A stretch of DNA of 36,186 nucleotides from sequence record DRR723986_9267; one strand, written 5' to 3'. Below are positions 19,950-35,564 of this stretch, piece by piece. The notes beneath the pieces are model-generated. The model did not search any database. It saw only the letters and a program-made list of their open reading frames with translations, and had not been told where the DNA came from. The first letter of the stretch is position 1, and every line of letters begins with the position of its first letter. Made by a program: the position numbers and the translations under genes.

Positions 19950-21143
19950 ATGAGCGAAGCTGAGCAGGACCTGGACATTGCCATCGGGCACTACGCAGAG
20001 CTTCTTGCGTCCAATCTTCATGCGCAACGTGCTGCCCACTTCCCTCCCGACGCCAAAAAAGTCATGCGCAGCCTGACCAGCGGCGAGGCGGCCGAGTTGC
20101 TTGGCGTCGATCATACCTACCTTCGCAAGCTTCATCGAGAAGGAAAGATCGCTGACGTCGAAACCACTGCGGGCAGCCACCGGCGATATACCCTCGATGA
20201 TATCTGGGAGATTCGTCACGCCCTTGAGGCAAACGCGAAGAAGCCTGGAACCTACGTTCCGGGGCGTCGGGCCGGTGACGAGCTTCAGATTGTCTCTGTT
20301 GTGAATTTCAAAGGCGGCAGCGGGAAAACGACAACATCCGCTCACCTTGCACAGCGCTTGGCTCTCAAGGGATATCGTGTCCTTGCGATCGATCTGGATC
20401 CCCAGGCATCCCTTTCCGCGCTTCATGGCATCCAGCCTGAGCTGGACCTGATGGAGGGTGGCACGCTGTACGATGCGGTTCGCTACGATGAACCGGTCCC
20501 GATCTCGGACGTGATCCGCAAGACCTACATCCGTGGTCTTGACCTGATTCCCGGGAACCTCGAGCTCATGGAATTCGAACATGAGACGCCGGCAGCCATC
20601 CAGCGCGGCGGTGCCCGGGCGTTCTTTGCCCGTGTGCGTGACGCGCTGGACAGTGTCGAAGCGGACTATGACGTTGTCGTCATCGACTGTCCGCCGCAGC
20701 TTGGCTTCTTGACCATGTCCGCCCTTTCAGCATCTTCTGGGGTGCTTGTTACCGTTCACCCGCAAATGCTCGATCTGATGTCCATGTCGCAGTTTCTGCG
20801 AATGACCGCTGATCTGCTTGGCGTCATCCGGGATGCTGGCGCAAACCTTCGCTTCGACTGGCTGCGCTTTCTGCCGACCCGCTATAAGGTGGGTGATGCC
20901 CCGCAAACCGAGGTCATTGCCTTCATCCGGGGTCTGTTCGGCAGGTCAGTGCTGACCAACCACATGGTTGAGTCGACTGCGATCTCTGATGCAGGGCTGA
21001 CGAAGCAGACGCTCTACGAGGCCGACAAGAAGGACTTCACGCGTCAGACTTTCGATCGTGCAATCGAATCCATGAACGCCGTCAACGACGAGATCGCGGC
21101 GATCATCCAGAACACGTGGGGACGCAATGGCAAGAAAGCCTAA
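19950..21143 (+). CDS. repA: Plasmid partitioning ATPase RepA (ParA family)
   Basis: N-terminal HTH, NFKGGSGKTT, DLDPQAS, IDCPPQLG; first gene of repABC. Confidence 0.96.
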   Translation: MSEAEQDLDIAIGHYAELLASNLHAQRAAHFPPDAKKVMRSLTSGEAAELLGVDHTYLRKLHREGKIADVETTAGSHRRYTLDDIWEIRHALEANAKKPGTYVPGRRAGDELQIVSVVNFKGGSGKTTTSAHLAQRLALKGYRVLAIDLDPQASLSALHGIQPELDLMEGGTLYDAVRYDEPVPISDVIRKTYIRGLDLIPGNLELMEFEHETPAAIQRGGARAFFARVRDALDSVEADYDVVVIDCPPQLGFLTMSALSASSGVLVTVHPQMLDLMSMSQFLRMTADLLGVIRDAGANLRFDWLRFLPTRYKVGDAPQTEVIAFIRGLFGRSVLTNHMVESTAISDAGLTKQTLYEADKKDFTRQTFDRAIESMNAVNDEIAAIIQNTWGRNGKKA

Positions 21144-22059
21144 ACTGGGACTGCCACTGCAGACCCTGCGCAACGCGCCCGACGCTCTTGAGGGGCGCAG
21201 GCTGCGTGGCGGCGTTTTCGAAATCGAGCCTGACCAAATCGAAACCACAGGTCGGCTCGATGACCGGCTGCAGATCGAGACTGAAGGCCTCAAGGCGTCA
21301 ATTTCCAAGAACGGACAGCGAGTACCAATCCTCGTCCGGCCGCTTGAGGGTGATCGCTACAGCCTGATCTATGGCCGTCGTCGACTGGAAGCTTGTAGAG
21401 AACTTGGGATCAAGGTCCGCGCCATTGTCACAGAGATGGAGGGCGATCAGGCACTTCGTGATCAGCTGTTGGAGAACCAGGAGCGGCGGGATCTAAGCTT
21501 CATCGAACGAGCGCTTGTTGCCGCAGCCTTGCTCGACGGTGACCATCTGAGCGCATCCGAACGCACCAACAAGGGTGTCGCCGAGGTTCTCAATCTGACC
21601 GAGGCAGGAGTGTCGCAGCTGTTAAGCGTGGTCCGCACCGTTGGGGAGGACCTGGTCCTCGCCATCGGTGCCGCTCCGGGCATTGGTCGGCCCAGGTGGG
21701 AAGAGCTCAAGAAGTTGCTGGGGGCTACGGATGCCGATCGCGAACTGCTTGCAGCTTTGGCGGGTGAGGCCAAGACATCCTACCAAGGCGGTATTGACGA
21801 GAAATCCGATCATGCATTTTTGGCCGTCCTCTCTGCTGCAGGGAAGCCCGAACAGACCACATCCTCGTCTCGCCCTCGCGGGCGGCCCAGCACGGTGATT
21901 CCGGGGGTCGGTGCCGCCACTGTCACGACCGGACGTCGTGGAAAGCAACTCAAGCTCGAGTTGAAGGCCGAGGAGAGCGATTTTGTCAGCTGGCTCGAGG
22001 GCAACGCCCCGCAGCTGATCGCCGAGCTTCACGAGCGCTGGAAGCGTTCGGAAGACTGA
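21127..22059 (+). CDS. repB: Plasmid partitioning protein RepB (ParB family)
   Basis: GQRVPILVRP, YGRRRL, ENQERRDLSFIE, IGAAPGIGRPRW. Confidence 0.95.
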   Translation: MARKPKLGLPLQTLRNAPDALEGRRLRGGVFEIEPDQIETTGRLDDRLQIETEGLKASISKNGQRVPILVRPLEGDRYSLIYGRRRLEACRELGIKVRAIVTEMEGDQALRDQLLENQERRDLSFIERALVAAALLDGDHLSASERTNKGVAEVLNLTEAGVSQLLSVVRTVGEDLVLAIGAAPGIGRPRWEELKKLLGATDADRELLAALAGEAKTSYQGGIDEKSDHAFLAVLSAAGKPEQTTSSSRPRGRPSTVIPGVGAATVTTGRRGKQLKLELKAEESDFVSWLEGNAPQLIAELHERWKRSED

Positions 22060-22098
22060 GGAAGAGCAACAACCAAAAAGGAGGCACGAGACAGGCAG

Positions 22099-22187
22099 AA
22101 AAGAAAAAGGCCCCGAGAAGCAAGCTTCACGAGACCTTTCTTAGGTTTCGCACGGGACCAGCCCGCTACAAAACTTCAGTTTTCGCA
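22099..22187 (-). ncRNA. Counter-transcribed antisense RNA (ctRNA) of the repABC replicon; ends approximate
   Basis: Minus-strand promoter immediately upstream and a terminator GGUCUCG-UGAAGCUUGCUUCU-CGGGGCC-UUUUUCUUUU whose G.U pairs form only on the minus strand; canonical repB-repC location. Confidence 0.8.
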
Positions 22188-22193
22188 CCTCTG

Positions 22194-22222
22194 AATGTAG
22201 CGATCTGGCCCCTTTCCCGCAA
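22194..22222 (-). promoter_or_regulatory. Sigma70-type promoter of the ctRNA
   Basis: TTGCGG-N17-TACATT on the minus strand. Confidence 0.7.
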
Positions 22223-22260
22223 GCGCAAAGCGATTCGCGGGCCAGGGAAATTTTGCCTTC

Positions 22261-23484
22261 GTGAATGACATCATGGATTACACACCGATTTCGCCGTTTA
22301 TGCGGCCGATATCGTACGCCCATCTGCGCGTCGTCGAGCGTCCTGAGGCGTCTGTTCCCGGCAAGCCCGTCAACAAGTGGGAGCTCCTCCGCGAGCTGTC
22401 CAAGGCACAGGCCGCCTTTCGGGTTTCCGAGCGCGATCTGACCGTTCTTCAGGGGCTTCTCAGCTTCTTTCCGGATGATGCGCTTGGCGGGAACACCGAA
22501 ATGGTCGTCTTCCCATCCAACAAGGCGATCTGCGAGCGGCTGAACGGGATGCCTTGCTCGACGATGCGTCGTCACCTCGCCCGGTTGGTAGAGGCAGGCT
22601 TGCTCATGCGGCGCGATAGCCCAAATGGGAAGCGGTATGTGCGCAAGCGTGGTGAAGATCGCGTGGCCTTCGGCTTTGACCTCTCCCCGCTCTATTGCCG
22701 GGCAGAGGAGATTGCACGGGCCGCAGAGGCCGTGCGTGAGGCCGAGGACCGTGTGCGGCGACTGAGGGAGGTGGTGAGCCTCATGCGTCGCGACCTGGCC
22801 GCTCTGGCGGAGTTCGGCGAGGACATCCAGCCCGGGCTTGGCCTATGGGACCAGCTCCGCTACACGGCCGCTCTCACGGCCCGCGCTCTTCGCCGCAAGC
22901 TTTCGCTTGAGGATCTGTCGGCATTCCGGACTGAACTGGAGACCCTTCTTGATCATGCACGCAACGTCATTGATGGTCCTGAAACGGAAGAAATGAACAC
23001 CAATGATGCCCATTTTGAGCGTCACCATCATAATTCAAATGAAGAATCTATAGATCTTGAACCTGCCTTAGAAAAAGGCGGGGCGGCGGGCGGCGCGCCT
23101 GATGATGATACGGGTGAGCCCGTGGCTAACGGTGAAGAGCATGACACGAGGCGGGTGCCGAAAATTCCACTCCACCTGGTAATCGCCGGCTGTCCCTCGC
23201 TCAAGACTTTCTATCAGGGCGACATTCGACACTGGCACCAACTTTTCGACGCGGCTTGTCATGTACGGCCGGCCATGGGGATCAGTGTTTCCGCTTGGGA
23301 AGAAGCGCAACGCTGCATGGGACCAGAACAAGCCTCGATCGTCGTCGTGGCCATGCTGGAACGTTTTTCCGAAATCAGGTCTCCGGGTGGATACTTGCGG
23401 GCGCTGACGTCCAAGGCCGCGGCGGGCGAATTCTCTTGCGGTCCGATGGTCATGGCTTTGATCGGTCGGCGAAGTGCGGCTTAA
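22261..23484 (+). CDS. repC: Plasmid replication initiator RepC
   Basis: VVFPSNKAI, RRDSPNGKRY, FGFDLSPL, IRSPGGYLRAL; AT-richer internal patch near 23.0 kb (expected oriV). Start may be the ATG at 22273. Confidence 0.96.
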   Translation: MNDIMDYTPISPFMRPISYAHLRVVERPEASVPGKPVNKWELLRELSKAQAAFRVSERDLTVLQGLLSFFPDDALGGNTEMVVFPSNKAICERLNGMPCSTMRRHLARLVEAGLLMRRDSPNGKRYVRKRGEDRVAFGFDLSPLYCRAEEIARAAEAVREAEDRVRRLREVVSLMRRDLAALAEFGEDIQPGLGLWDQLRYTAALTARALRRKLSLEDLSAFRTELETLLDHARNVIDGPETEEMNTNDAHFERHHHNSNEESIDLEPALEKGGAAGGAPDDDTGEPVANGEEHDTRRVPKIPLHLVIAGCPSLKTFYQGDIRHWHQLFDAACHVRPAMGISVSAWEEAQRCMGPEQASIVVVAMLERFSEIRSPGGYLRALTSKAAAGEFSCGPMVMALIGRRSAA

Positions 23485-23543
23485 CAGCTGTTAAGTTTCA
23501 ACGTCATCGGAGTTCAGTTGGCCTGACTTAACAGCTGTTAAGT
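23480..23543. promoter_or_regulatory. Two parS-like palindromes
   Basis: CTTAACAGCTGTTAAG at 23480-23495 and ACTTAACAGCTGTTAAGT at 23526-23543, directly after repC. Confidence 0.85.
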
Positions 23544-23567
23544 TGCCTCTTGGCAACCATACGATCG

Positions 23568-23645
23568 TCGAGAGGGAAAGGAGTGTTGGTTTGAGGGTGA
23601 CGGGAAGTGAGATCGGGAGAGTGGCTTCCGACGCCCGTCGTGGAG
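23568..23645 (+). repeat. Structured leader family A, copy 1 (before the ParB-domain gene)
   Basis: TCGAGAG-N11-TTGGTT-N7-GACGGG..TCGGGAGAGTGGCTTCCGACGCCCGTCGTGGAG; homologous to 34279-34356. Confidence 0.75.
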
Positions 23646-23653
23646 AAGATCTG

Positions 23654-25831
23654 ATGACCAAAGCTGTCCAGAAAATCACCCTGTCCCCTTCACGGGATAT
23701 CCCTTTTGACAAGCTGGTGCTGAGCCAGTCCAATGTGCGGCGCATCAAGGCTGGCGTATCCGTCGAGGAACTGGCCGAAGATATCGCTCGCCGCGGTCTC
23801 TTGCAAAGCCTGAGCGTGCGGCCAGTCTTGGCTGACGATGGGACCCAGACCGGCAAGTTCGAGATCCCGGCCGGTGGCCGCCGGTTCCAAGCATTGTCCC
23901 TGCTGGTGAAGCAGAAGCGTTTGACAAAGACCACGCCCATTCCCTGCATCGTCCGCGATGCCGCGTCCAGCATCCTGGCCGAGGACGATTCCCTTGCAGA
24001 AAACTTGCAGCGCGTCGCCCTGCACCCGCTCGACCAGTTCCGTGCGTTTGTGGCGCTGCGGGATAAGGGCCAGAGCGATGCAGAGATTGCTGCGGCCTTC
24101 TTCGTGACGCCGCAGGTCGTGAAGCAGCGCTTGAAACTCGCTTCCGTCGCCCCTGCCCTGCTTGAGATCTATGCCGAGGACGGCATGACGCTGGAGCAGC
24201 TCATGGCCTTCACCGTGAATCCTGATCACGCGCGTCAGGTTCAGGTCTGGGATGTGATCGATTCATCCTGGAACAAGGAGCCATTCCAAATCCGGCGGAT
24301 GCTGACCGAGACCTCGGTCCGGGCGTCTGACCGACGCGCGGTCTTTGTGGGTGTTGAGGCCTATGAAGCGGCGGGCGGCACGATGTTGCTTGACCTGTTC
24401 CAGGGCGATGACGGTGGCTGGCTCGAAGACCCAGCCCTGCTCGATCGGCTGGTGGCGGACAAACTCCAGGCCGAGGCTGAGAAGGTTGCCGTTGAGGGCT
24501 GGAAGTGGATCGAGGTCGCGCTTGACCTGCCCTACGGCTACAACCACGGGCTGCGGTCCCTGTCCGGTAATCCGGCACCAATGACGGATGAGGAAGGTGC
24601 GGCCCATGCCAAGCTGCTCGCCGAGTATCGGGCGTTGGAAGACGAATACGCGGGTCAGGATGAATTCCCCGACGAGATCGACACACGTCTTGGCGAGTTG
24701 GAGGTCGCCATGGAAAAACTCGAGGCCAGGCCATTGATCTTCGACGCGGAGGAGATCGGGCGGGCAGGGGCGTTCGTCACGCTCGACCGCTACGGCGCGC
24801 TGGCCGTCTATCGCGGCTATGTGCGGTCAGAGGATGAGCCTGTTGAGGAGGCCGCGGTCCAGGATGGTACTGATCCTGCGGTAGCGGGGCAGGGGGACGA
24901 TCGTGGTCTCGCCGATGGCCATGGCAGTGCCGCTCATGGCGGAACCGTCATCATGTCGGGTGGCCAGCCGATCGGAGCTGACTTGCCGGAGGATGAGGAC
25001 GACGGGGCGCTGAAGCCGCTGCCAGAGCGGTTGGTCATGGAGTTGACGGCCCACCGGACGCTGGCGCTGCGTGAAGCGATCGGTCGCTCGCCGGATGTCG
25101 CGCTGACACTTTTGCTTCTGAAGCTCGTCACTGACACCTTCCGTACCTCCGGGGCGTCAGGCAGCTGCCTCGAGGCATCTGTGCGTCAGGTCTATATGTC
25201 AGCGCAAGCGAGCGATCTGAAGGACAGCGTGGTGGCCAAGCTGGTCGACGAACGTCATGCGGAATGGGAAGCCGATCTGCCGCTTGGCGATGATGCAGCG
25301 CTCTGGGACTATCTGGAGGTCCTCGACCAGGGCAGCCGTCTGGCCTTGCTGGCGCATTGCCTCAGCTTCGGCGTCAACGCGCTGCATGAGAAGGTGAACC
25401 CTTACGGGGCAGGCATCTCCGCAGGCGGTCTGACCCGTCGTATGGCGCATGCCGATCTCGTGGCGCGTGCCGTCGATCTCGATATGGTCGAGGCGGGTTG
25501 GGAGCCGACGGTCGACACCTATCTCAACCGTGTGCCCAAGGCCCGCATCCTCGATGCCGTGCGTGAGGCCAAGGGGGAGGGGACAGCCCAGCTCCTCGAT
25601 CACCTGAAGAAAGGCGAGATGGCCAGTGAGGCCGAGCGCTTGCTGAAGGGCAGCGGCTGGTTGCCCGAGGTCCTGCGCCGGAACGATCTCGTGGCGCTGG
25701 ACGGTGAGGACTGTGCCGAAGGGCAGGGGACGGATGTCGAAGTGGCTGACAGCGTCAGTGAAGCTGACCTTCCTGCATTCCTGATGGATGACCTGCCTGC
25801 TCAAGGCGCGTCGATGCTGGCCGCCGAATAG
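23654..25831 (+). CDS. Large ParB/RepB/Spo0J N-domain protein
   Basis: SNVRR, GLLQSL, AGGRRFQAL, SLAENLQRVALHPLDQF, C-terminal GSGWLPEVLR; GGAG RBS before the ATG at 23654. Confidence 0.9.
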   Translation: MTKAVQKITLSPSRDIPFDKLVLSQSNVRRIKAGVSVEELAEDIARRGLLQSLSVRPVLADDGTQTGKFEIPAGGRRFQALSLLVKQKRLTKTTPIPCIVRDAASSILAEDDSLAENLQRVALHPLDQFRAFVALRDKGQSDAEIAAAFFVTPQVVKQRLKLASVAPALLEIYAEDGMTLEQLMAFTVNPDHARQVQVWDVIDSSWNKEPFQIRRMLTETSVRASDRRAVFVGVEAYEAAGGTMLLDLFQGDDGGWLEDPALLDRLVADKLQAEAEKVAVEGWKWIEVALDLPYGYNHGLRSLSGNPAPMTDEEGAAHAKLLAEYRALEDEYAGQDEFPDEIDTRLGELEVAMEKLEARPLIFDAEEIGRAGAFVTLDRYGALAVYRGYVRSEDEPVEEAAVQDGTDPAVAGQGDDRGLADGHGSAAHGGTVIMSGGQPIGADLPEDEDDGALKPLPERLVMELTAHRTLALREAIGRSPDVALTLLLLKLVTDTFRTSGASGSCLEASVRQVYMSAQASDLKDSVVAKLVDERHAEWEADLPLGDDAALWDYLEVLDQGSRLALLAHCLSFGVNALHEKVNPYGAGISAGGLTRRMAHADLVARAVDLDMVEAGWEPTVDTYLNRVPKARILDAVREAKGEGTAQLLDHLKKGEMASEAERLLKGSGWLPEVLRRNDLVALDGEDCAEGQGTDVEVADSVSEADLPAFLMDDLPAQGASMLAAE

Positions 25832-25930: not shown

Positions 25931-26404
25931 ATGTCTGCAACAACCATCATCGACACCGGGCCCCTTGGGGCGCTCATTCGCTGCACCGACGGCAGCCCCA
26001 AGCCGCCGGCACGCTTCACGAAGAAGCTGGCGACCTGGGAGCGTTCGAACGGTGTCGGCCGCCTTGTGAAAAAGGAGCCACCCCGGCCTTACGCGACCTG
26101 GACTGCTCCCGCGTCGTTCACGCTGCATGAGGGTAACTTCTCCTCGGACGGGGTGATCCTCGTCACCATCATGCGCAGCCATTCCGCTGACAGTGCCCTC
26201 GTCTTCCAGGTGGCCGAGGAGCCGAAGCCCGGGCAGGTGCGTGTGCTCCTCGACTTCGGCGGCAACACGGAGCTGCTGCATTTGGCGGAATCCATCACCG
26301 CGGCCGAGCTTTGGATCGCCAAGGAAGGATACCGCAACGCGCGGCTTGAGATCGTCGGCGATGAACAGGGCGAAAGGGCAGGGGGCGCGGACCTGGCCGC
26401 CTGA
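25931..26404 (+). CDS. Hypothetical plasmid backbone protein (157 aa)
   Basis: GAGG RBS, coding-like codon usage, co-oriented with the ParB-domain gene. Confidence 0.8.
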   Translation: MSATTIIDTGPLGALIRCTDGSPKPPARFTKKLATWERSNGVGRLVKKEPPRPYATWTAPASFTLHEGNFSSDGVILVTIMRSHSADSALVFQVAEEPKPGQVRVLLDFGGNTELLHLAESITAAELWIAKEGYRNARLEIVGDEQGERAGGADLAA

Positions 26405-26587
26405 GCCCAACTGAAACCGAGGAGCCCGCCCAAGCGCGGGCCTCTCATCCATTACAACCTTGTCCTTTGAGTTCGCGGGGCGCCAAAGGAACCATCCCCA
26501 ACGAAGGACGTCTTCAACCAAGAGCCTGCCCGGGAGGCTGGCGGCGTTAGAAGCATCAGCGGGACAACCGGCTCCAGTCGTCAGGGC

Positions 26588-26784
26588 ACCATCCCTCGCT
26601 CGCCATTCCCTTCCTTGCCCCGAATCCTGTCTTCGAGATCAACCCGCGAGGGGTCGGACTACGGGCAAGCCCGTGCCGCCGGGTGGATTCGGACGAGCCG
26701 AACGCACCCGGTGATGTCAGCCAGTATTCGGGCCTTCGAGGTCCTGTCGCGCGGGGGATGGTCCCCCGCCTCCAAGACAGGAGC
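26588..26784 (+). repeat. Structured leader family B, copy 1
   Basis: GGTCCTGTC..GGGATGGTCCC..AAGACAGGA nested hairpin plus an upstream complementary ACCATCCCTCGC; same architecture as 30862-31064. Confidence 0.7.
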
Positions 26785-26791
26785 CAAACAG

Positions 26792-26956
26792 ATGTCCCGC
26801 AAAGATGCTCACGCCTTCGCCGCCTCCCTCGCCGCCACGCTCATGGTCTCGATCGTCGTCTTCCAGGCTGGGGATGGAACCTTCGGCGCCGTCCCCGCCG
26901 ATGAAATCGACGGAGACGAGGTCGTGATAGTCTCGGAGTACGATCCCTTCGGGTGA
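26792..26956 (+). CDS. 54-aa acidic hypothetical protein
   Basis: AGGAG RBS; MSRKDAHAFAASLAATLMVSIVVFQAGDGTFGAVPADEIDGDEVVIVSEYDPFG; followed by a hairpin. Confidence 0.75.
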   Translation: MSRKDAHAFAASLAATLMVSIVVFQAGDGTFGAVPADEIDGDEVVIVSEYDPFG

Positions 26957-26974
26957 GGCTTCGGCCTCACTTCT
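26953..26974 (+). terminator. Hairpin with C(UUCG)G tetraloop
   Basis: GTGAGGC-TTCG-GCCTCAC-TTCT. Confidence 0.6.
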
Positions 26975-27236
26975 CGAGGGCCGGGGCGCGGCGCAGTCGC
27001 GCCGCCAGGTCTATCTCCGGCCGCGTGATCGGCGGTGCCGATCTGAGAAACGCCTGTAGCCCATCAGGGCAGATCGTAGTGCCCACAGGGCGGGGAGCGG
27101 ACGCTGGAAAAACTTCAGCGCGCACACCTTTGGGCGGAAAAACAGTCACTCGCTGCTTGTTGGAGGTGCGTTCACCCCGCCGTTGCATTGGCGATGTTCG
27201 ACTGGCACAAGGTGCTAACGGGAGGCGGCGAAGCAC

Positions 27237-28187
27237 TTGCTAAATTATCACGATCTATCTGATGACCAATTTGAGCAAGTTGTCGTTGCATTGGGCCAGC
27301 GCCTTTTCGGTGCGGGATTTAGTGGCTTTACAAAGGGGAAAGACGGCGGGAAGGATGGGAAGTTTCGCGGCATCGCTCAAGCATACCCTTCCACGGCGTC
27401 ACCATGGAAAGGCGGTACGATCGTTCAAGCCAAGCATACCATGGGCCTCAATGCGTCCTTCAGCGATAAGACTTTCTTCAATCCTGATACGGAAACGGGC
27501 GTGCTACCGGACGAACTCCCGCGGATCGTCGAAATGATCCGGGCAGGAGAACTTGATAACTATCTTGTTGTTTCGAACAGAAAATTGACCGGGATCGCCC
27601 AAGGTAAACTGGAGACGTACCTACACGGAAAAACGGGTTTGCCCAAGGAACAACTGGGGTTCCTTGGCACCAGCCAGCTTGATGACCTGCTTGCGTTGTA
27701 TCCCGATGTCCGAAGCCGCTTGAACTTTCGGCCGCTTGATCGCCCTCTTATTGTTCGGCCGGACGAGTTGGCGGAGACAATTGAGGCGTTCCGAGACGCG
27801 CTTGCAGAGTTGGACGTCCCGGTATCGAAAGACTTGCCGACCGCGCGCACTCCGTTTGAAGAGAAGAACCGCCTCAACAATATGAGTGAAGATTACGCCA
27901 AGAAATTGCGCAGTTTATATCTAGCAGTTACGAAGCAGATTGACGTCTTTCTTAGCGACCCCAAGAACGAGGCCTTCCAAGCAGCATACCATGACGCTAC
28001 TGAAGAATTCTCGCTCAAGATAATAGAATTCCAGAAAGAAGGAGACACATTCGACAGTATTTTCAACTATCTTCTAGACATGTTGATAGACCGCTCGTCT
28101 ACTTTGAGAAGCAACCAACGCCTTACCCGGGCCATGTTGTTCTACATGTACTGGACTTGCGACATCGGGACGAACGCCGATGCTTAG
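27237..28187 (+). CDS. Lamassu/ABC-3C effector (LmuA-like): Mrr-like PD-(D/E)xK nuclease plus C-terminal domain
   Basis: FEQ...KDGGKDG...IVQAKH nuclease motif; C-terminus EKNRLN...YMYWTCDIG; TTG start with GGAGG upstream. Confidence 0.82.
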   Translation: MLNYHDLSDDQFEQVVVALGQRLFGAGFSGFTKGKDGGKDGKFRGIAQAYPSTASPWKGGTIVQAKHTMGLNASFSDKTFFNPDTETGVLPDELPRIVEMIRAGELDNYLVVSNRKLTGIAQGKLETYLHGKTGLPKEQLGFLGTSQLDDLLALYPDVRSRLNFRPLDRPLIVRPDELAETIEAFRDALAELDVPVSKDLPTARTPFEEKNRLNNMSEDYAKKLRSLYLAVTKQIDVFLSDPKNEAFQAAYHDATEEFSLKIIEFQKEGDTFDSIFNYLLDMLIDRSSTLRSNQRLTRAMLFYMYWTCDIGTNADA

Positions 28188-28419
28188 GCCCACGAAGCAT
28201 GCCCATCCGGACCTTACCGTTATGAACATGGCCTACCTACTGCTCACACGGCTTCGGAAGTCCCGAAGCGAGAGCTATTCGGACCTTCTGCGATACGCGA
28301 CATTATCGAGTTCGAGTGGTGAAAAACTCTTTCTCCCCTCCCTGAATTTTCTCTTTTTGCTTGGATTGGTGCGTTACCACCCCAAGGGCGACCGATTTGA
28401 ATACATAGGTGCCAAGTGA
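28180..28419 (+). CDS. Lamassu/ABC-3C middle component (LmuC-like, 79 aa)
   Basis: MLRPTKHAHP...FLPSLNFLFLLGLVRY; overlaps both neighbours. Confidence 0.8.
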   Translation: MLRPTKHAHPDLTVMNMAYLLLTRLRKSRSESYSDLLRYATLSSSSGEKLFLPSLNFLFLLGLVRYHPKGDRFEYIGAK

Positions 28420-30212
28420 AACTCGTGCGCCTCTACTCCAACCTTGATCACTATTTCACACCCGTCGATTTCAACGCGGGCTTCAATGCTGTAGTCGCGG
28501 AAATACGGCATCCTGAGAACCGAAGCAAAAGCTCCCACAACCTGGGCAAGTCGACACTCGCTCGCGTGATCGATTTTTGCCTATTGGGAAAAATTGATAA
28601 AGACCACTTTTTCAAGAAGCGGGGTGATCTATTCTCAGAATTCGTTTTTTTTCTTGAACTCCAACTTCTCGACGGAAGCCATTTGACAATCCGGAGGTCC
28701 GTCCAATCACCAACAAGAATCTCTTTTAAGAAATCAGAGGCTTCTGAACCTGACCTGTCATCATTGGGTGATGACGGTTGGACACACTCAAACCTAGCCT
28801 TTGAAAAGGCGCAGGCTCTTCTTGATGGCTATCTCGACTTCACAGACATCAGCCCATGGAAGTACCGGGAGGCTCTGGGGTATTTTCTCCGCCGCCAATC
28901 AGACTATGACGATGTCTTTAAACTTCAACGCCACATGGGGGCTGACATCCATTGGAAGCCGCTTCTAGCTCGCGTTTTAGGATTGGATGCCTCGTTGTTC
29001 AAAGAGCGTTACTCGATGAAGAACGACATCGATCAGAAGCAAGTGGAGCTCCAAGCATTTGAGAATCAAAGCGGCGCCACTGAAGAGCAACTGGAAAATG
29101 CTGACGCACTGTTGCAGCTTCGCGAGGCCGATGTCGAACGTATGCAGTCAGAACTTGACCAATTTGACTTTGAGGAAGCTGACGCAGCTGCGACTGATCG
29201 TTTGGTAGGGAATATCGATCAGGAGATCGCAGCATTAAACGATCGACGTTACGCATTGACTTATAATGAGCGTGAAATTAGTGATGCCCTGAAAGATGAA
29301 AAAATTTCTTTTGACCCCCAGAAGGCGAAGTCTTTGTTTGATGAGGTGGGGATCCTTTTCCCTGATCAGATCGTCGCTGATTTCGAGCAGCTCATCGCTT
29401 TTAATCGCGCGATCACTCAAGAACGACAGCAGTACCTTCGAGAAGAGCTGGCCGCAACTCGTACTGAGTTGACCGAGATTGGTCGAAAACTGGCACAATT
29501 GAACAGCGAGCGAAAATCGGCTCTCGCCTTTTTGCGGTCGGAAGACGTATTCACAAAGTATAAAGAAGTCTCAGCGCGGATTTCAAGAATCAATGCTGAG
29601 GTCACTATACTGCGAAAGCAGCAAGAATTCAGGACCAACATCCAAGAAAAACGTGAAGAGCTTCGCTCTCTTAGAGCCACATACTCTATGCAACAAGGTT
29701 TAGCCGAACGTCAGGTCAGGTCAGTCAGTCAAGATCCTGAAAGCCTGTTGGCACAAACTCGTAAACACTTCAGCTCGATCATCGAACGTGTCCTCGGGCG
29801 GAAAGCACTCTTAAATGTGCGAGTAAACTCCGAGGGGAACCTCGACTTCCGGGCGGATTTTGTTGATGATAACGAGCTTGCGACTAGTGAAGGTGACGGC
29901 ACCTCCTACCGGAAGCTTCAATGTGTGGCCTTCGATTTGGCTGTTCTTCGCGCCCACGTGGATGGAAAGTTTCCGCGCTTCGTCTATCACGATGGCGTTT
30001 TCGAGGCATTGGACCCACGCCCAAAACAGAACCTTTTGGATGTGATACGAGAGTACAGTGATCTTGGGATTCAAACGGTGATTACGCTAATTGGTTCAGA
30101 TGCACCGCCGCCTGAGGCTGGCGCCGGCGACGTGTTTGGACCGGACGAAGTGGTCGTGAAGCTACACGATGATGGGAAGGAAGGGCGCTTGTTCAAGTTC
30201 GAGAGCTGGTAA
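28416..30212 (+). CDS. Lamassu/ABC-3C SMC-like ABC ATPase (LmuB-like, DUF2326)
   Basis: Walker A HNLGKST, long coiled coil, degenerate signature GDGTSY, Walker B FVYHDGVFE. Confidence 0.88.
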   Translation: MKLVRLYSNLDHYFTPVDFNAGFNAVVAEIRHPENRSKSSHNLGKSTLARVIDFCLLGKIDKDHFFKKRGDLFSEFVFFLELQLLDGSHLTIRRSVQSPTRISFKKSEASEPDLSSLGDDGWTHSNLAFEKAQALLDGYLDFTDISPWKYREALGYFLRRQSDYDDVFKLQRHMGADIHWKPLLARVLGLDASLFKERYSMKNDIDQKQVELQAFENQSGATEEQLENADALLQLREADVERMQSELDQFDFEEADAAATDRLVGNIDQEIAALNDRRYALTYNEREISDALKDEKISFDPQKAKSLFDEVGILFPDQIVADFEQLIAFNRAITQERQQYLREELAATRTELTEIGRKLAQLNSERKSALAFLRSEDVFTKYKEVSARISRINAEVTILRKQQEFRTNIQEKREELRSLRATYSMQQGLAERQVRSVSQDPESLLAQTRKHFSSIIERVLGRKALLNVRVNSEGNLDFRADFVDDNELATSEGDGTSYRKLQCVAFDLAVLRAHVDGKFPRFVYHDGVFEALDPRPKQNLLDVIREYSDLGIQTVITLIGSDAPPPEAGAGDVFGPDEVVVKLHDDGKEGRLFKFESW

Positions 30213-30333
30213 CTGCCTATACGCTCAAGACGAAGATCTCATCTGGATTGGATGACCGCTATTATTGGGCGATCCGCAGCTTAGGAGCACCTGAGCCAGC
30301 GACCGCTCTGGGTCGATCGCGTAGGTCAAGCCT

Positions 30334-30654
30334 TTAACTGATGGCAAGGTCGCTCGCGGTCTTTCCCGCTTCCAGGGCTTCTACGAACCACTGCGGTTTC
30401 CGCCCTCGGCCGGACCAGGTGAGCGCCGGGTTCTCAGGGTGCCGGTATTTCGCCGCGGCAGGCGCACGGGAGGATTTCGTTTCGGTGCCGACAAGTTCGG
30501 ACAGGGAGTAGCCCAGATCCCGGGCGAGAGCTTCCACCTTGGCGCGGGCTTCCGCCTTATGCCGATCCTCAAATGTGGTAATCGCCTTGGCGACGTCCTT
30601 CTGCATTTTCTTCAGCTCGCTGAGCGACAGTGCCTCGAGATCGTAATCAGCCAT
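30334..30654 (-). CDS. hns: H-NS family nucleoid protein
   Basis: AKYRHPENPALTWSGRGRKPQW motif; ATG at 30654. Confidence 0.93.
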   Translation of the reverse strand: MADYDLEALSLSELKKMQKDVAKAITTFEDRHKAEARAKVEALARDLGYSLSELVGTETKSSRAPAAAKYRHPENPALTWSGRGRKPQWFVEALEAGKTASDLAIS

Positions 30655-30861
30655 TGATGCGGTCCGTGTCCTGAATGTCCCGGTATCGATAGCCTGTCGA
30701 TGCAAGGTGCCGCAACGCCCGGCAGGCAAGGGCAGGGGTGGCAGATGCTGGTGATCGCAGTTCTCGTCGCCAGTGAGGTGCTGAACTGGGGATCAGGCAG
30801 TCCCGATTGGCAGGATGACAGGGTCTGGCATGGGCTCCCCGCGCCTCTCTGCCTTCCGGGG

Positions 30862-31064
30862 CCATCCCTTCGACTGACAATCCCCTAATCCCGTTCGGTC
30901 TCCTGCGCGCAACCCCGCGTCAGTCCGGGCCGTGTTGCCCCGTTGGGGCTGCCCGCTCCACCCCGGTCCTCTGGGGGTTTCCGGCGTCCGTGCCGTCCAC
31001 CGTGCACGCGTCATCCGACGGGCTTTTTCCGGGTCTTGTCGAAGGGACGGTCCCGAAGACAGGA
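30862..31064 (+). repeat. Structured leader family B, copy 2 (before ssb)
   Basis: GGTCTTGTC..GGGACGGTCCC..AAGACAGGAC; upstream CCATCCCTTCGAC is complementary (12/13) to 31038-31050. Confidence 0.7.
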
Positions 31065-31080
31065 CACACAGGAGCTTATC

Positions 31081-31485
31081 ATGCAAAACATCGTCATCCT
31101 CGCCGGCAACATCGGCCAAAAACCCGAAGCCCGCACCACCCAAGGCGGCACCAACATCACCAACTTCAGCCTCGCCACCTCGCGCCCCCGCCTCTCGGAA
31201 GGTCGCGTCCTTCGCGACGAGAACGGCTACCGTGTCATGGACAACGAATGGCACCGCATCACCTGCTTCAACGGTCTCGGCAAGACCGTCGCCGAGCATT
31301 GCGAAAAGGGCATGAAGGTCCTCGTCCACGGCCGCATCCACTACAGCAAGTGGATCGACAGCATGGGGAACGACCGCTACGGCTGCGAGATCATCGCCGA
31401 GAAGGTCGACTTCCTAAGCCGGCCGAAGTCGGCCGAGAACGAAAACCCCGAACTGGTCGACCGCGACGACGAGATCCCGTTCTGA
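31081..31485 (+). CDS. ssb: Single-stranded DNA-binding protein
   Basis: VILAGNIGQKPE, EWHRITCF, KGMKVLVHGRI, acidic tail DDEIPF; AGGAG RBS. Confidence 0.95.
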   Translation: MQNIVILAGNIGQKPEARTTQGGTNITNFSLATSRPRLSEGRVLRDENGYRVMDNEWHRITCFNGLGKTVAEHCEKGMKVLVHGRIHYSKWIDSMGNDRYGCEIIAEKVDFLSRPKSAENENPELVDRDDEIPF

Positions 31486-31599: not shown

Positions 31600-32154
31600 C
31601 TATCGCTGCGTTTCGGGCAACGGCTCGCCAGTGATGTAGGTATACGACCCACGGACCAGTTGCAGCACCACGTCCAGTTCGGCTTCGGTAATTGGCGTAT
31701 AGATCATCACGAACCCCTCCCAACCCGCGCGCTGATCGGCCCAAGGATGTGCCACGGCCCAACCGGCGTCTATCGCGGCACGGGCAGTATCGGGGTGCAG
31801 CGCGGCATGCAGACTGCCATCAGGGTGAAGATGGGCGAACTCGCGTCCGCCGACGATGGCCTGCGGTTGTGCCATCGGGGCGTCGCTTGTCAGCTGAAAC
31901 CCAACCGCACCGGGGAGCGATACGCGGGTCGCCCCAAGAACGACCCAGGGAAGTGCAGCGACTTGACGCAGCATTTCTTCTGACAACTCAGGGACCGGCG
32001 ATACGCCGATCTGCACGTGCGGCACGCCGTTCGTCGTCTCCGGACGCGCGCCATCGCGCATCGGGAAAGTGACGTTCTGGGCGGACGCGGGCACCGCCGC
32101 AGTGAGCAGCGATACTGCGGCCGGGATCAGAAGCAGGTTTGAAAGTCTTGGCAT
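31600..32154 (-). CDS. Exported luciferase-like (DUF5519) domain protein
   Basis: Sec signal (ASA-Q), EFAHLHPDGSLHAAL, GWAVAHP, VMIYTP...E. Confidence 0.75.
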   Translation of the reverse strand: MPRLSNLLLIPAAVSLLTAAVPASAQNVTFPMRDGARPETTNGVPHVQIGVSPVPELSEEMLRQVAALPWVVLGATRVSLPGAVGFQLTSDAPMAQPQAIVGGREFAHLHPDGSLHAALHPDTARAAIDAGWAVAHPWADQRAGWEGFVMIYTPITEAELDVVLQLVRGSYTYITGEPLPETQR

Positions 32155-32197
32155 CTCGATATCCTTTTGGTCCCGGCCGCAGCGTTGATTGTCTGGC

Positions 32198-34356: not shown

Positions 34357-34364
34357 GAATGCCG

Positions 34365-35564
34365 ATGGGTGTTGTGGAAGTTCTGGATCCAGGTCAGCCG
34401 GCTCGGGCTGGTGGCTGGAAAGTGGATGTGAGCAGGGGTGAGCGGAACGGGCGGGTATCGTCCGAATGGTTCAACCGGCCCGATGACGAGCGGTATCTCT
34501 CGCTCGACGATCTCTGGGCCAATGTGAAAGGCCGGTCGGAGCGCAGCCGCAGCCGCGTGGTACAGACGGCGGATATCCGGGTCGAGGCTGCGCGCGACAA
34601 CCCCGAGCGGTTGCACTTGATGCTGCCGAAGGCACAAGAACCGGTCGCGCCGACGCATTGGGCGTTTGGCCAGCTTGCCAGCATCGTCGGCGCCCCGGCC
34701 TCCTACCTGCGGCAGTTGCCGGCGCCGCTGGCGGGCATCAACCTGCAATATGGTCTGACCAACCACCGCGCCGAGCAGGTGAAGACCTTCGAGACCGAAG
34801 ATGGCCGCACGGAGTTGCGCGCCGTGACCGGCCCGGACTATGGCCGCATCCATGACCACGAGTTGGTCGAGGCGGTGCAGCGCATCGCGGGCAATGGCAC
34901 GGGCGACACGCGCTGGAAGGTGCCGGGCGTGCTCGACTGGTCGACCGGGGTCTACAACCCTGATGTCGAGATCAGCCGCGACACGACCACGCTTTATGCC
35001 TCGGACCGCGATGTCTTCCTGTTCCTGGTCGATGATCGCAACCCGATCGAGGCGGGCAAGTTGCCGGACGGCTCCCCCGATCTCTACTTCCGGGGTTTCT
35101 ACTGCTGGAACTCCGAAGTGGGGGCAAAGACCCTCGGCATGGCGAGCTTCTACCTGCGAGCCGTGTGCCAGAACAGGAATCTCTGGGGGGTCGAGGATTT
35201 TCAGGAGATCCGGATCCGGCATTCGAAATACGCAGCCTCCCGCTTTGCCCATGAGGCGGCACCGGCGCTGACGCGGTTTGCCAATTCCTCGCCGCAGGGC
35301 TTCGTGAACGGCATCAAGGCGGCGCGGCAGCAGATCGTGGCGCGCAGCGATGAGGACCGTGCGAATTTCCTGAGGAAGCGCGGCTTCTCGAAGCCCGAAT
35401 CTGGCAAGATCATCGAGAAGGTGCTGATGGAAGAGGGCCGCCCGCCCGAAAGCATCTTCGACTTCGTGCAGGGTATCACGCGACTTGCGCGCGACAAAAC
35501 CCAGCAGGATGCGCGGCTCGACATGGAAGGGCGCGCCAAGAAGCTCCTCGACCGGGTCGGCTGA
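34365..35564 (+). CDS. DUF932-family protein
   Basis: RPDDERYLSL, YASDRDVFLFL, RGFYCWNSEVG, RAVCQNRNLWG, IRHS. ATG at 34365 fits the GGAGG RBS (34359 is an alternative). Confidence 0.8.
   Translation: MGVVEVLDPGQPARAGGWKVDVSRGERNGRVSSEWFNRPDDERYLSLDDLWANVKGRSERSRSRVVQTADIRVEAARDNPERLHLMLPKAQEPVAPTHWAFGQLASIVGAPASYLRQLPAPLAGINLQYGLTNHRAEQVKTFETEDGRTELRAVTGPDYGRIHDHELVEAVQRIAGNGTGDTRWKVPGVLDWSTGVYNPDVEISRDTTTLYASDRDVFLFLVDDRNPIEAGKLPDGSPDLYFRGFYCWNSEVGAKTLGMASFYLRAVCQNRNLWGVEDFQEIRIRHSKYAASRFAHEAAPALTRFANSSPQGFVNGIKAARQQIVARSDEDRANFLRKRGFSKPESGKIIEKVLMEEGRPPESIFDFVQGITRLARDKTQQDARLDMEGRAKKLLDRVG

Follow-up and report, generated by a model that had tools for sequence, protein, structure and literature searches.

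Two genes on one plasmid stretch are preceded by long self-complementary leaders. The question raised by this locus is whether these leaders act as messenger RNA, as single-stranded DNA (ssDNA) or as both. The stretch analysed, referred to as the window, is the whole 36,186-nt sequence of DRR723986_9267, which was recognised from its gene content as part of an alphaproteobacterial repABC plasmid. The two genes are p54, a 54-aa open reading frame (ORF) for a conserved hypothetical protein (26792-26956, plus strand), and the plasmid ssb gene (134 aa, 31081-31485, plus strand; Pfam SSB E 1.5e-24, NCBIfam ssb). The two leaders are giant stem-multiloop elements of about 250 nt which are conserved and strongly constrained. 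The initial annotation had described them by the two arms of a hairpin; the elements are larger than this, with a closing stem and a multi-helix core extending over about 250 nt. The reading favoured here, with a probability of about 0.4, is that they are structured cis-acting mRNA 5' leaders that gate the expression of ssb and p54 and are of a kind not previously described.

Structure and distribution of the two leaders

The motif GGTCYTGTC-N-GGGAYGGTCCC-N-AAGACAGGA had exactly two matches in the window, at 26740-26782 and 31032-31064, both on the plus strand, and none in 100 dinucleotide shuffles. Each match corresponds to a nested hairpin. Copy 1 is formed by the segments S2 (26748-26762) and S3 (26762-26769) inside an outer stem of 26744-26748 with 26776-26780. 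The outer stem of copy 2 pairs 31033-31040 with 31058-31065 and the inner stem 31044-31047 with 31051-31054. The distance from the motif end to the start codon is 9 nt in copy 1 (p54, ATG 26792) and 16 nt in copy 2 (ssb, ATG 31081). The hairpin had been described as covering or abutting the ribosome binding site (RBS). In copy 1 the Shine-Dalgarno (SD) sequence GGAG (26780-26783) overlaps the 3' strand of the hairpin, and the SD of copy 2 (31070-31074) lies downstream of it.

Upstream complements of the inner hairpin arm were recovered by an independent repeat finder, as first reported, with a CCATCCC tract 140-165 nt upstream in each copy. The inverted repeat of copy 1 (I3) joins 26584-26605 with 26745-26766 over 22 nt at 82% complementarity, and that of copy 2 (I8) joins 30857-30874 with 31038-31055 over 18 nt at 89%. 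The distal, pyrimidine-rich arm, which contains CCATCCC on the plus strand in both copies, was named S1. Pair probabilities in the resulting helix P1 were 0.66-0.91 for copy 1 (means over 41 homologues) and 0.85-0.94 for copy 2. Folded as ssDNA and as RNA on both strands, the two regions were strongly structured, and both plus-strand RNAs closed with the long-range stem (copy 1 -101.4 kcal/mol, z -2.67; copy 2 -100.8 kcal/mol, z -1.73; each folded alone).

Homologues were aligned for the ssb leader (alignment A2, 38 sequences) and the p54 leader (A3, 41 sequences), and a covariance model (R1) was built from A3. The p54-leader element spans 26560-26805, is made up of the closing helices P0a, P0b and P1 and core helices, and matched R1 over its full length with 288.4 bits. 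Helix P0b pairs 26777-26785 with a GGCTCC box (26570-26578, plus strand) which is complementary to the p54 SD and lies about 210 nt upstream of it. This helix was 88.0% paired, and G12, C13, C15 and C16 of the box were invariant in 41/41 sequences. The ssb-leader element spans 30849-31062, with P0 (30849-30856 with 31055-31062), P1 (30859-30884 with 31031-31054) and a core of P2-P8 (30890-31022). The helices supported in A2 were the closing P0 and P1, P2-P5 and P8 of the core, and one hairpin of variable length. Unpaired junction sequences were nearly invariant in both alignments.

Compensatory changes support the long-range fold, and the long-range pairing is kept in homologues. The 58 pairs of A2 were 91.9% paired, compared with 35-51% in slid controls. 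Fifteen of them were doubly changed, six in the closing stem, against 6.8 ± 1.6 in shuffles (0/500 reached it). The 62 pairs of A3 were 91.7% paired, with 11 doubly changed against 5.9 ± 1.0 in shuffles (again 0/500). The covariance model found full-length matches in divergent lineages and orders. The proposal that the long-range partners co-vary was borne out between the two copies and among homologues. In A2, pair 35:232 changes from UA to CG in 4/38 sequences. Further double changes appeared in the covariance-model alignment (p54 leaders below 90% identity), where pairs 53:493, 57:490 and 59:488, inside S1:S2, were each doubly changed in 3/53 representatives. A Sphingomonad lineage, described below, changes likewise.

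These changes also bear on whether the folds are mere by-products of double-stranded DNA (dsDNA) operators. The ATCCC/GGGAT boxes would then be half-sites for a repressor of establishment genes, comparable to Reg576 and its TTATCCC heptamers. Such boxes do recur: the 5' arm of the ssb leader contains three, S2 has an inverted one, and copy 1 carries similar boxes. PMC6294495 describes repressor-controlled establishment genes with TTATCCC operators on a Bacillus plasmid. This is nevertheless very improbable. Compensatory changes occurred in helices that contain no box (P2, P3, P5 and P8 in ssb; 67:203 and 68:202 in p54). The spacing of inverted boxes differs between the copies, with outer stem arms 27 and 17 nt apart, which a fixed dimeric operator would not tolerate.

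What the two leader types have in common is limited to the 3' module and their general architecture. In nhmmer searches of the window and 40 kb of a related plasmid, the profile of each family found its own locus only, with no cross-match. The p54 profile matched its own reverse complement (E 1e-5 to 1e-7), thus showing the palindromy. A further tract in copy 1, TCCTGTCTT (26625-26633, plus strand), is complementary to 26774-26782 as first observed, but is not conserved among homologues. It shows a T/C polymorphism in A3, with TCCCGTCTT in its place in about half of the close homologues and another sequence in divergent ones. The overlapping ATCCTG (26624-26629), which recalls a MOBP nic site, was rejected because it is not conserved in A3.

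The element is tied to gene starts and is widespread across Alphaproteobacteria. The ssb leader was found in 88 PLSDB plasmids (65 at ≥80% coverage) and in 35/401 genomes of the family. The p54 leader with its ORF was found in 103 PLSDB plasmids (73 at ≥80% coverage), and the leader alone in 38/401 family genomes. Each plasmid carried one copy of each leader type. The exact motif was present in 7/61 relatives, and a relaxed motif in at least 120 genome stretches among contigs of one genome per species. The matches listed came from Rhodobacterales, Hyphomicrobiales/Rhizobiales, Sphingomonadales, Acetobacteraceae, Maricaulis and a few odd metagenome-assembled genomes. They comprised 128 motif matches in 120 loci, of which 77 lay before a p54-like ORF, 40 before ssb and 11 elsewhere or too near a contig end. 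Among them, 56/85 p54 loci also held a homologue of the ParB-like gene, p157, ssb or the DUF932 gene (up to 8 kb examined).

Alternative pairing of S2 and access to the start sites

S2 keeps its complementarity both to the distal S1 and to the adjacent S3 across alphaproteobacterial orders, and all three segments have undergone changes. Selection maintains both pairings, which are mutually exclusive. The local hairpin of p54 was 99.1% paired in the 41 homologues of A3, and the only changes were 17 G:U cells and one other. The ssb local hairpin was 76.1% paired in the 38 homologues of A2, among which pair 226:252 was U:G in 36 and no covariation was found. In the inner stem of Sphingomonad-type leaders there are three double changes relative to the main type, plus a G:T (A:C on the other strand). 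Their distal S1, at about -143, changes to match, so that S1, S2 and S3 change together. In the minimum-energy folds of 14 divergent lineages S2 paired with S3 in seven and with an upstream tract in six, and one was ambiguous.

Competition between the long-range pairing and the local hairpin had been proposed earlier. It is real and conserved, but the two forms are not in balance by prediction, and the long-range closed form would be the ground state. On the full-length strand, in a sample drawn mostly from Rhodobacterales, this form was predicted to be favoured by 11.6 kcal/mol on average for ssb (30/31 leaders) and by 7.1 kcal/mol for p54 (30/33 leaders). The gap was below 3 kcal/mol in 2/31 ssb and 8/33 p54 leaders.

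The mRNA leaders favoured here could work as follows. The pyrimidine-rich 5' arm S1, with CCATCCC, would pair over about 25-40 bp with the purine-rich 3' arm, made up of S2 and the AAGACAGGA box, and close the core. Alternatively S2 would pair with the adjacent S3 and give the nested hairpin that abuts the RBS. The closed form may be an 'off' or storage state. The hairpin form may be the 'on' state, which would arise once a factor, processing or folding kinetics keeps the 5' arm occupied or takes it away. The output could be translation, premature termination or mRNA stability.

Start-site accessibility was predicted for positions -14 to +12. In 27 ssb leaders removal of the 5' arm raised the unpaired probability from 0.36 to 0.58. 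Of the pairing of this region, a share of at least 0.97 went to the 5' arm in 27/27 ssb leaders and of at least 0.93 in 21/25 p54 leaders. In the p54 closed form the SD is paired with the conserved GGCTCC box. A possible outermost arm (I10, 30812-30832, plus strand) is complementary to ssb codons 1-6 (31080-31100; 21 nt, 76%) and is without statistical support. Ungapped complementarity of nt 1-18 of the coding sequence was 10.9/18 for ssb and 10.4/18 for p54 (62 ssb and 102 p54 leaders). This outermost stem was dropped because 18-mers from inside the coding sequences did about as well (10.8 and 11.2 of 18, respectively).

The strand that folds and the ssDNA promoter alternative

As to the folding molecule, the wobble pattern of the hairpin and the contigs from RNA libraries point to the mRNA strand. 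Fold z-scores point to the template strand, as is also the case for Frpo of plasmid F. Support for the plus strand came from the G:U pattern of the local hairpin, namely the changes in A3, the Sphingomonad G:T and pair 226:252 of A2. The 53 representative p54 leaders aligned to the covariance model held 139 G:T cells and 81 A:C. RNA library X14 contained one contig over the ssb leader (30868-31103, 0 differences). Library X12 contained contigs over 30730-30885, and contigs of relatives over 30894-31129. These contigs carry no strand, end or level information and may include DNA carry-over, so they are weak evidence for the plus strand. The parts of the 5.4-kb stretch that were not covered (including the p54 leader in X12 and all but the ssb leader in X14) are no evidence of silence.

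Several results weigh against the mRNA-leader reading. The shared ssb helices held 116 A:C cells and 23 G:T, and two near-invariant A:C or C:A appositions lie inside ssb P1 and P3. Wobble counts alone do not settle the strand, because strand-neutral recounts disagree between the ssb and p54 families. The minus strand gave the lower fold z in 9/9 ssb homologues (mean -8.05 vs -4.75) and in 8/9 p54 homologues (-5.58 vs -3.36). The consensus fold of alignment A4 had 108 pairs on the minus strand, with 519 G:U cells and 13 majority-G:U pairs, compared with 104 pairs, 259 G:U cells and five majority-G:U pairs on the plus strand. As ssDNA the minus strand also folded better than the plus strand. The closed form being favoured by 7-12 kcal/mol, a switch would need an opener. 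Removal of the 5' arm changed the predicted unpaired probability at the p54 start little (0.34 with the arm, 0.40 without; 25 leaders). The ssb SD is outside any supported helix, with the stem ending about 8 nt before it. Upstream of the two leaders no promoter was found, and a sigma-70 scan of 26380-27000 and 30600-31120 returned 0 sites, a null that says little since the validated F Frpo2 region also returned 0. Finally, the genomic niche is one where ssDNA promoters are known.

An Frpo-like ssDNA element on the transferred (template, minus) strand, either alone or in addition to a role in RNA, is the most serious alternative, and is possible if somewhat unlikely. A stem-loop on the incoming strand would recruit RNA polymerase and/or stall complementary-strand synthesis, and would be switched off once the DNA is double stranded. 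The nested hairpin would simply arise from the 3' arm, which the resulting mRNA carries at its 5' end. Frpo elements are defined by a stem-loop of the transferred strand that reconstitutes -35 and -10 sequences, according to PMC11541004 and PMC9849209. PMC9849209 also places a pair of paralogous stem-loops before ssb and ygeA/ygeB in the leading region of F. Stalling of complementary-strand synthesis by one such stem-loop is described in bioRxiv 10.64898/2026.01.09.698686.

The niche matches that of plasmid F, whose leading region is likewise annotated with ssb, a large ParB-like protein and a DUF932 protein on one strand. The ParB-like, ssb and DUF932 genes of the window all share one strand as well, and the region was treated as a leading region for this reason. 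Like the leaders, Frpo1 and Frpo2 (F and ColIb-P9; ssi, class 1) stand in a leading region, immediately before ssb and another early gene. In both systems there are two self-complementary copies a few kb apart, each of about 280-330 nt, with a strongly negative fold z and a slight preference for the template strand. Minus-strand ssDNA stability was also similar. The p54 leader folded with -82.4 kcal/mol (z -6.90) and the ssb leader with -72.6 kcal/mol (z -3.23), and the F controls gave -74.3 kcal/mol (z -7.28) for Frpo1 and -69.4 kcal/mol (z -6.03) for Frpo2. With DNA parameters the minus strand had the lower energy in both Frpo elements and the lower z in Frpo1 only. The minus-strand preference of the leaders extended to 17/18 homologues and to the consensus fold. 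A large stable stem-loop on the template strand before early leading-region genes is thus present here. The minus strand would be the transferred strand, judging from the relaxase position in a related plasmid and from RP4; that this is presumed counts against the ssDNA alternative.

The sequences themselves differ from Frpo. Samuel et al. 2024 assign Frpo/ssi similarity at a BLAST E of 1e-6 or below, and when both leaders were compared by blastn with 16 kb of leading-region sequence from F, the best E values were 0.053 and 0.18, with neither match in Frpo1 or Frpo2. Membership in the Frpo family by similarity to the F leading region is not supported. The initial annotation had offered an Frpo-like promoter or a translational switch. 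The resemblance to Frpo lies in context, size and template-strand fold preference, and does not extend to sequence. Its remark that no consensus -35/-10 was evident agreed with the empty scan, which had little power for the reason given above. Inspection by eye revealed no -35/-10 pair, whichever arm and geometry were considered. The minus strand has a -35-like TTGTCA which was lost in divergent homologues, with no -10 apparent. A GG...GC block ahead of the p54 leader resembles a sigma-54 site but was rejected because its spacing varies by several nt among homologues. The leaders are GC-rich and have no recognisable UP element. Their core is multi-branched with conserved unpaired motifs, whereas Frpo2 is one simple long hairpin. 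Their two copies share only the 3' module, compared with about 92% identity between Frpo1 and Frpo2. Their 3' arm reaches the RBS, whereas in Frpo2 about 70 nt separate the end of the stem from the ssb ATG. The changes in the local hairpin fit the plus strand, and the RNA-library contigs cover the 5' arm, both of which count against the ssDNA alternative. Upstream of the DUF932 gene there was no such structure (z +0.6 to +0.8; coding control z -3.5). A hairpin before every leading gene was not supported either, the regions before the ParB-like gene and p157 having z of about -2.5 to -3.1.

In favour of the ssDNA alternative, PMC12672017 shows that such elements come in unrelated sequence classes. 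It describes further ssDNA promoter classes with mapped start sites, unrelated to one another, in pESBL and F, and reports that the enterobacterial ones were poorly induced in S. meliloti. Like the leaders, they are large stem-loops upstream of leading-region genes (early-induced operons in that study) and are presented there as having no Frpo homology. They were validated by 5' rapid amplification of cDNA ends and are said to reconstitute -35 and -10 sequences, whereas the leaders are known from sequence. No published account of the element or of an alphaproteobacterial ssDNA promoter was found, although the supplements of PMC11541004 (Table 2) and PMC12672017 (Fig. S3) might list related candidates.

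The stronger RNA-fold signal on the minus strand would also suit an antisense RNA transcribed from that strand across the leader and start region. This would repress ssb or p54 in established cells and be absent in fresh recipients. The leader contigs, which are strandless, would be compatible with it. No minus-strand promoter-like site was found inside the first codons of ssb or p54 by scan or by eye, and no intrinsic terminator was found at the distal end by scan. A giant hairpin closed from 5' to 3' would make the segment that complements the start region inaccessible, and the p54 family has no minus-strand wobble excess. An antisense RNA is improbable.

The mRNA-leader reading was also compared with known RNA systems. 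Fold-back inhibition of hok mRNA and the MS2 maturation-gene leader are cases of long-distance start-site occlusion. In the leaders, too, a distal 5' segment reaches across about 200 nt to pair with the start region, the closed form is thermodynamically the preferred one, and an alternative local hairpin is available when the distal partner is missing. The leaders differ in that no antisense partner or processing site is known for them and the ssb SD lies outside the supported helix. A hok/sok-type toxin mRNA was rejected, as p54 has no Hok family match in Pfam or NCBIfam and the same leader type precedes ssb, which is no toxin. Riboswitch-type leaders have a three-segment expression platform. 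The leaders resemble them in having a multi-helix core with invariant unpaired nucleotides and one RBS-adjacent segment with two exclusive partners. They differ in having no known ligand, no Rfam match, no terminator and a large predicted energy gap. Rfam 15 gave no match at the gathering score in the whole window, and at E ≤ 10 over 26400-31200 it gave only three chance matches to eukaryotic snoRNA/miRNA families, none on the leaders. Covariation and alternative pairing at the RBS, as expected of a cis-regulatory mRNA leader, are present, and the strand indications conflict.

The two roles could be combined in one sequence. The leaders would then be a class of ssDNA promoter or roadblock without hexamers in plasmids and integrative and conjugative elements of Rhodobacterales, Rhizobiales and Sphingomonadales and, once transcribed, an mRNA leader whose hairpin sets translation. 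This is rather doubtful. If true, early expression of ssb and p54 would be driven by the multi-branched fold that the incoming strand adopts, and one palindromic element would be read in two nucleic acids. To our knowledge, it is only in enterobacterial plasmids, with their Frpo/ssp promoters, that the way conjugative elements express establishment genes within the first minutes of entry is known. Here a sequence-unrelated, conserved structured element stands at the equivalent position, before ssb and the ubiquitous uncharacterised p54, in plasmids of marine Roseobacter-group bacteria, rhizobia and sphingomonads. Depending on the reading, it would represent a new class of ssDNA promoter, a new kind of large riboregulator, or the two together in a single sequence. 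The covariance model and the motif can be used to find leading regions in Alphaproteobacteria.

Plasmid setting and neighbouring genes

The replication genes of the window are repA (19950-21143), repB (21127-22059) and repC (22261-23484). Counter-transcribed RNAs are typical of repABC replicons, and the repB-repC intergenic region (22059-22261) had no Rfam match for one. Between the repC and ParB-like genes, 23480-23542 is occupied by a perfect inverted repeat of 17 nt, CTTAACAGCTGTTAAGT, which has 29 nt between its arms and ends at the listed start of the ParB-like gene. It could be a centromere-like or operator site. The ParB_N protein of 762 aa (23543-25831) is followed by the 157-aa ORF p157 and then by p54. 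A LysR gene is located between ssb and the DUF932 gene (34359-35564). A related complete Phaeobacter plasmid has identical gene order, followed by radC, a methylase-helicase gene and a toprim gene, all on the same strand, and carries a MOBP relaxase farther along.

No Pfam or NCBIfam family matched p54. Its cluster has 421 members, and its sequence was present on at least 1000 contigs. Conserved blocks were common to 61 distinct homologues, with a hydrophobic N-terminal block SLA.TLMV and an acidic C-terminus ending in E-x-D-P-[F/W]. The neighbouring plasmid SSB ends in DDEIPF (31465-31482). It might be speculated that p54 mimics the C-terminal tip of SSB. p54 is likely an early establishment factor.

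A low-GC ABC-3C defence island (27237-30212; GC 0.49-0.55) with CTD12, MC8/MC6 and DUF2326 proteins is situated between p54 and the hns and ssb genes. In the related Phaeobacter plasmid this slot is occupied by a TrlF-type ATPase, which suggests a site of variable cargo within the leading region. The H-NS gene (30334-30729, minus strand) was divergently paired with ssb in 32/44 ssb loci among those with the relaxed motif. A conserved TTGCG...GCTATC block near its start resembles, by eye, an H-NS promoter. A third large nested palindrome was found 3' of ssb, with arms at 31784-31806/32096-32118 and 31842-31865/32025-32048, overlying ORFs without a family match. It is followed by a near-perfect 19-bp hairpin (32115-32182), and the 421-nt region folded with a z of -3.84.

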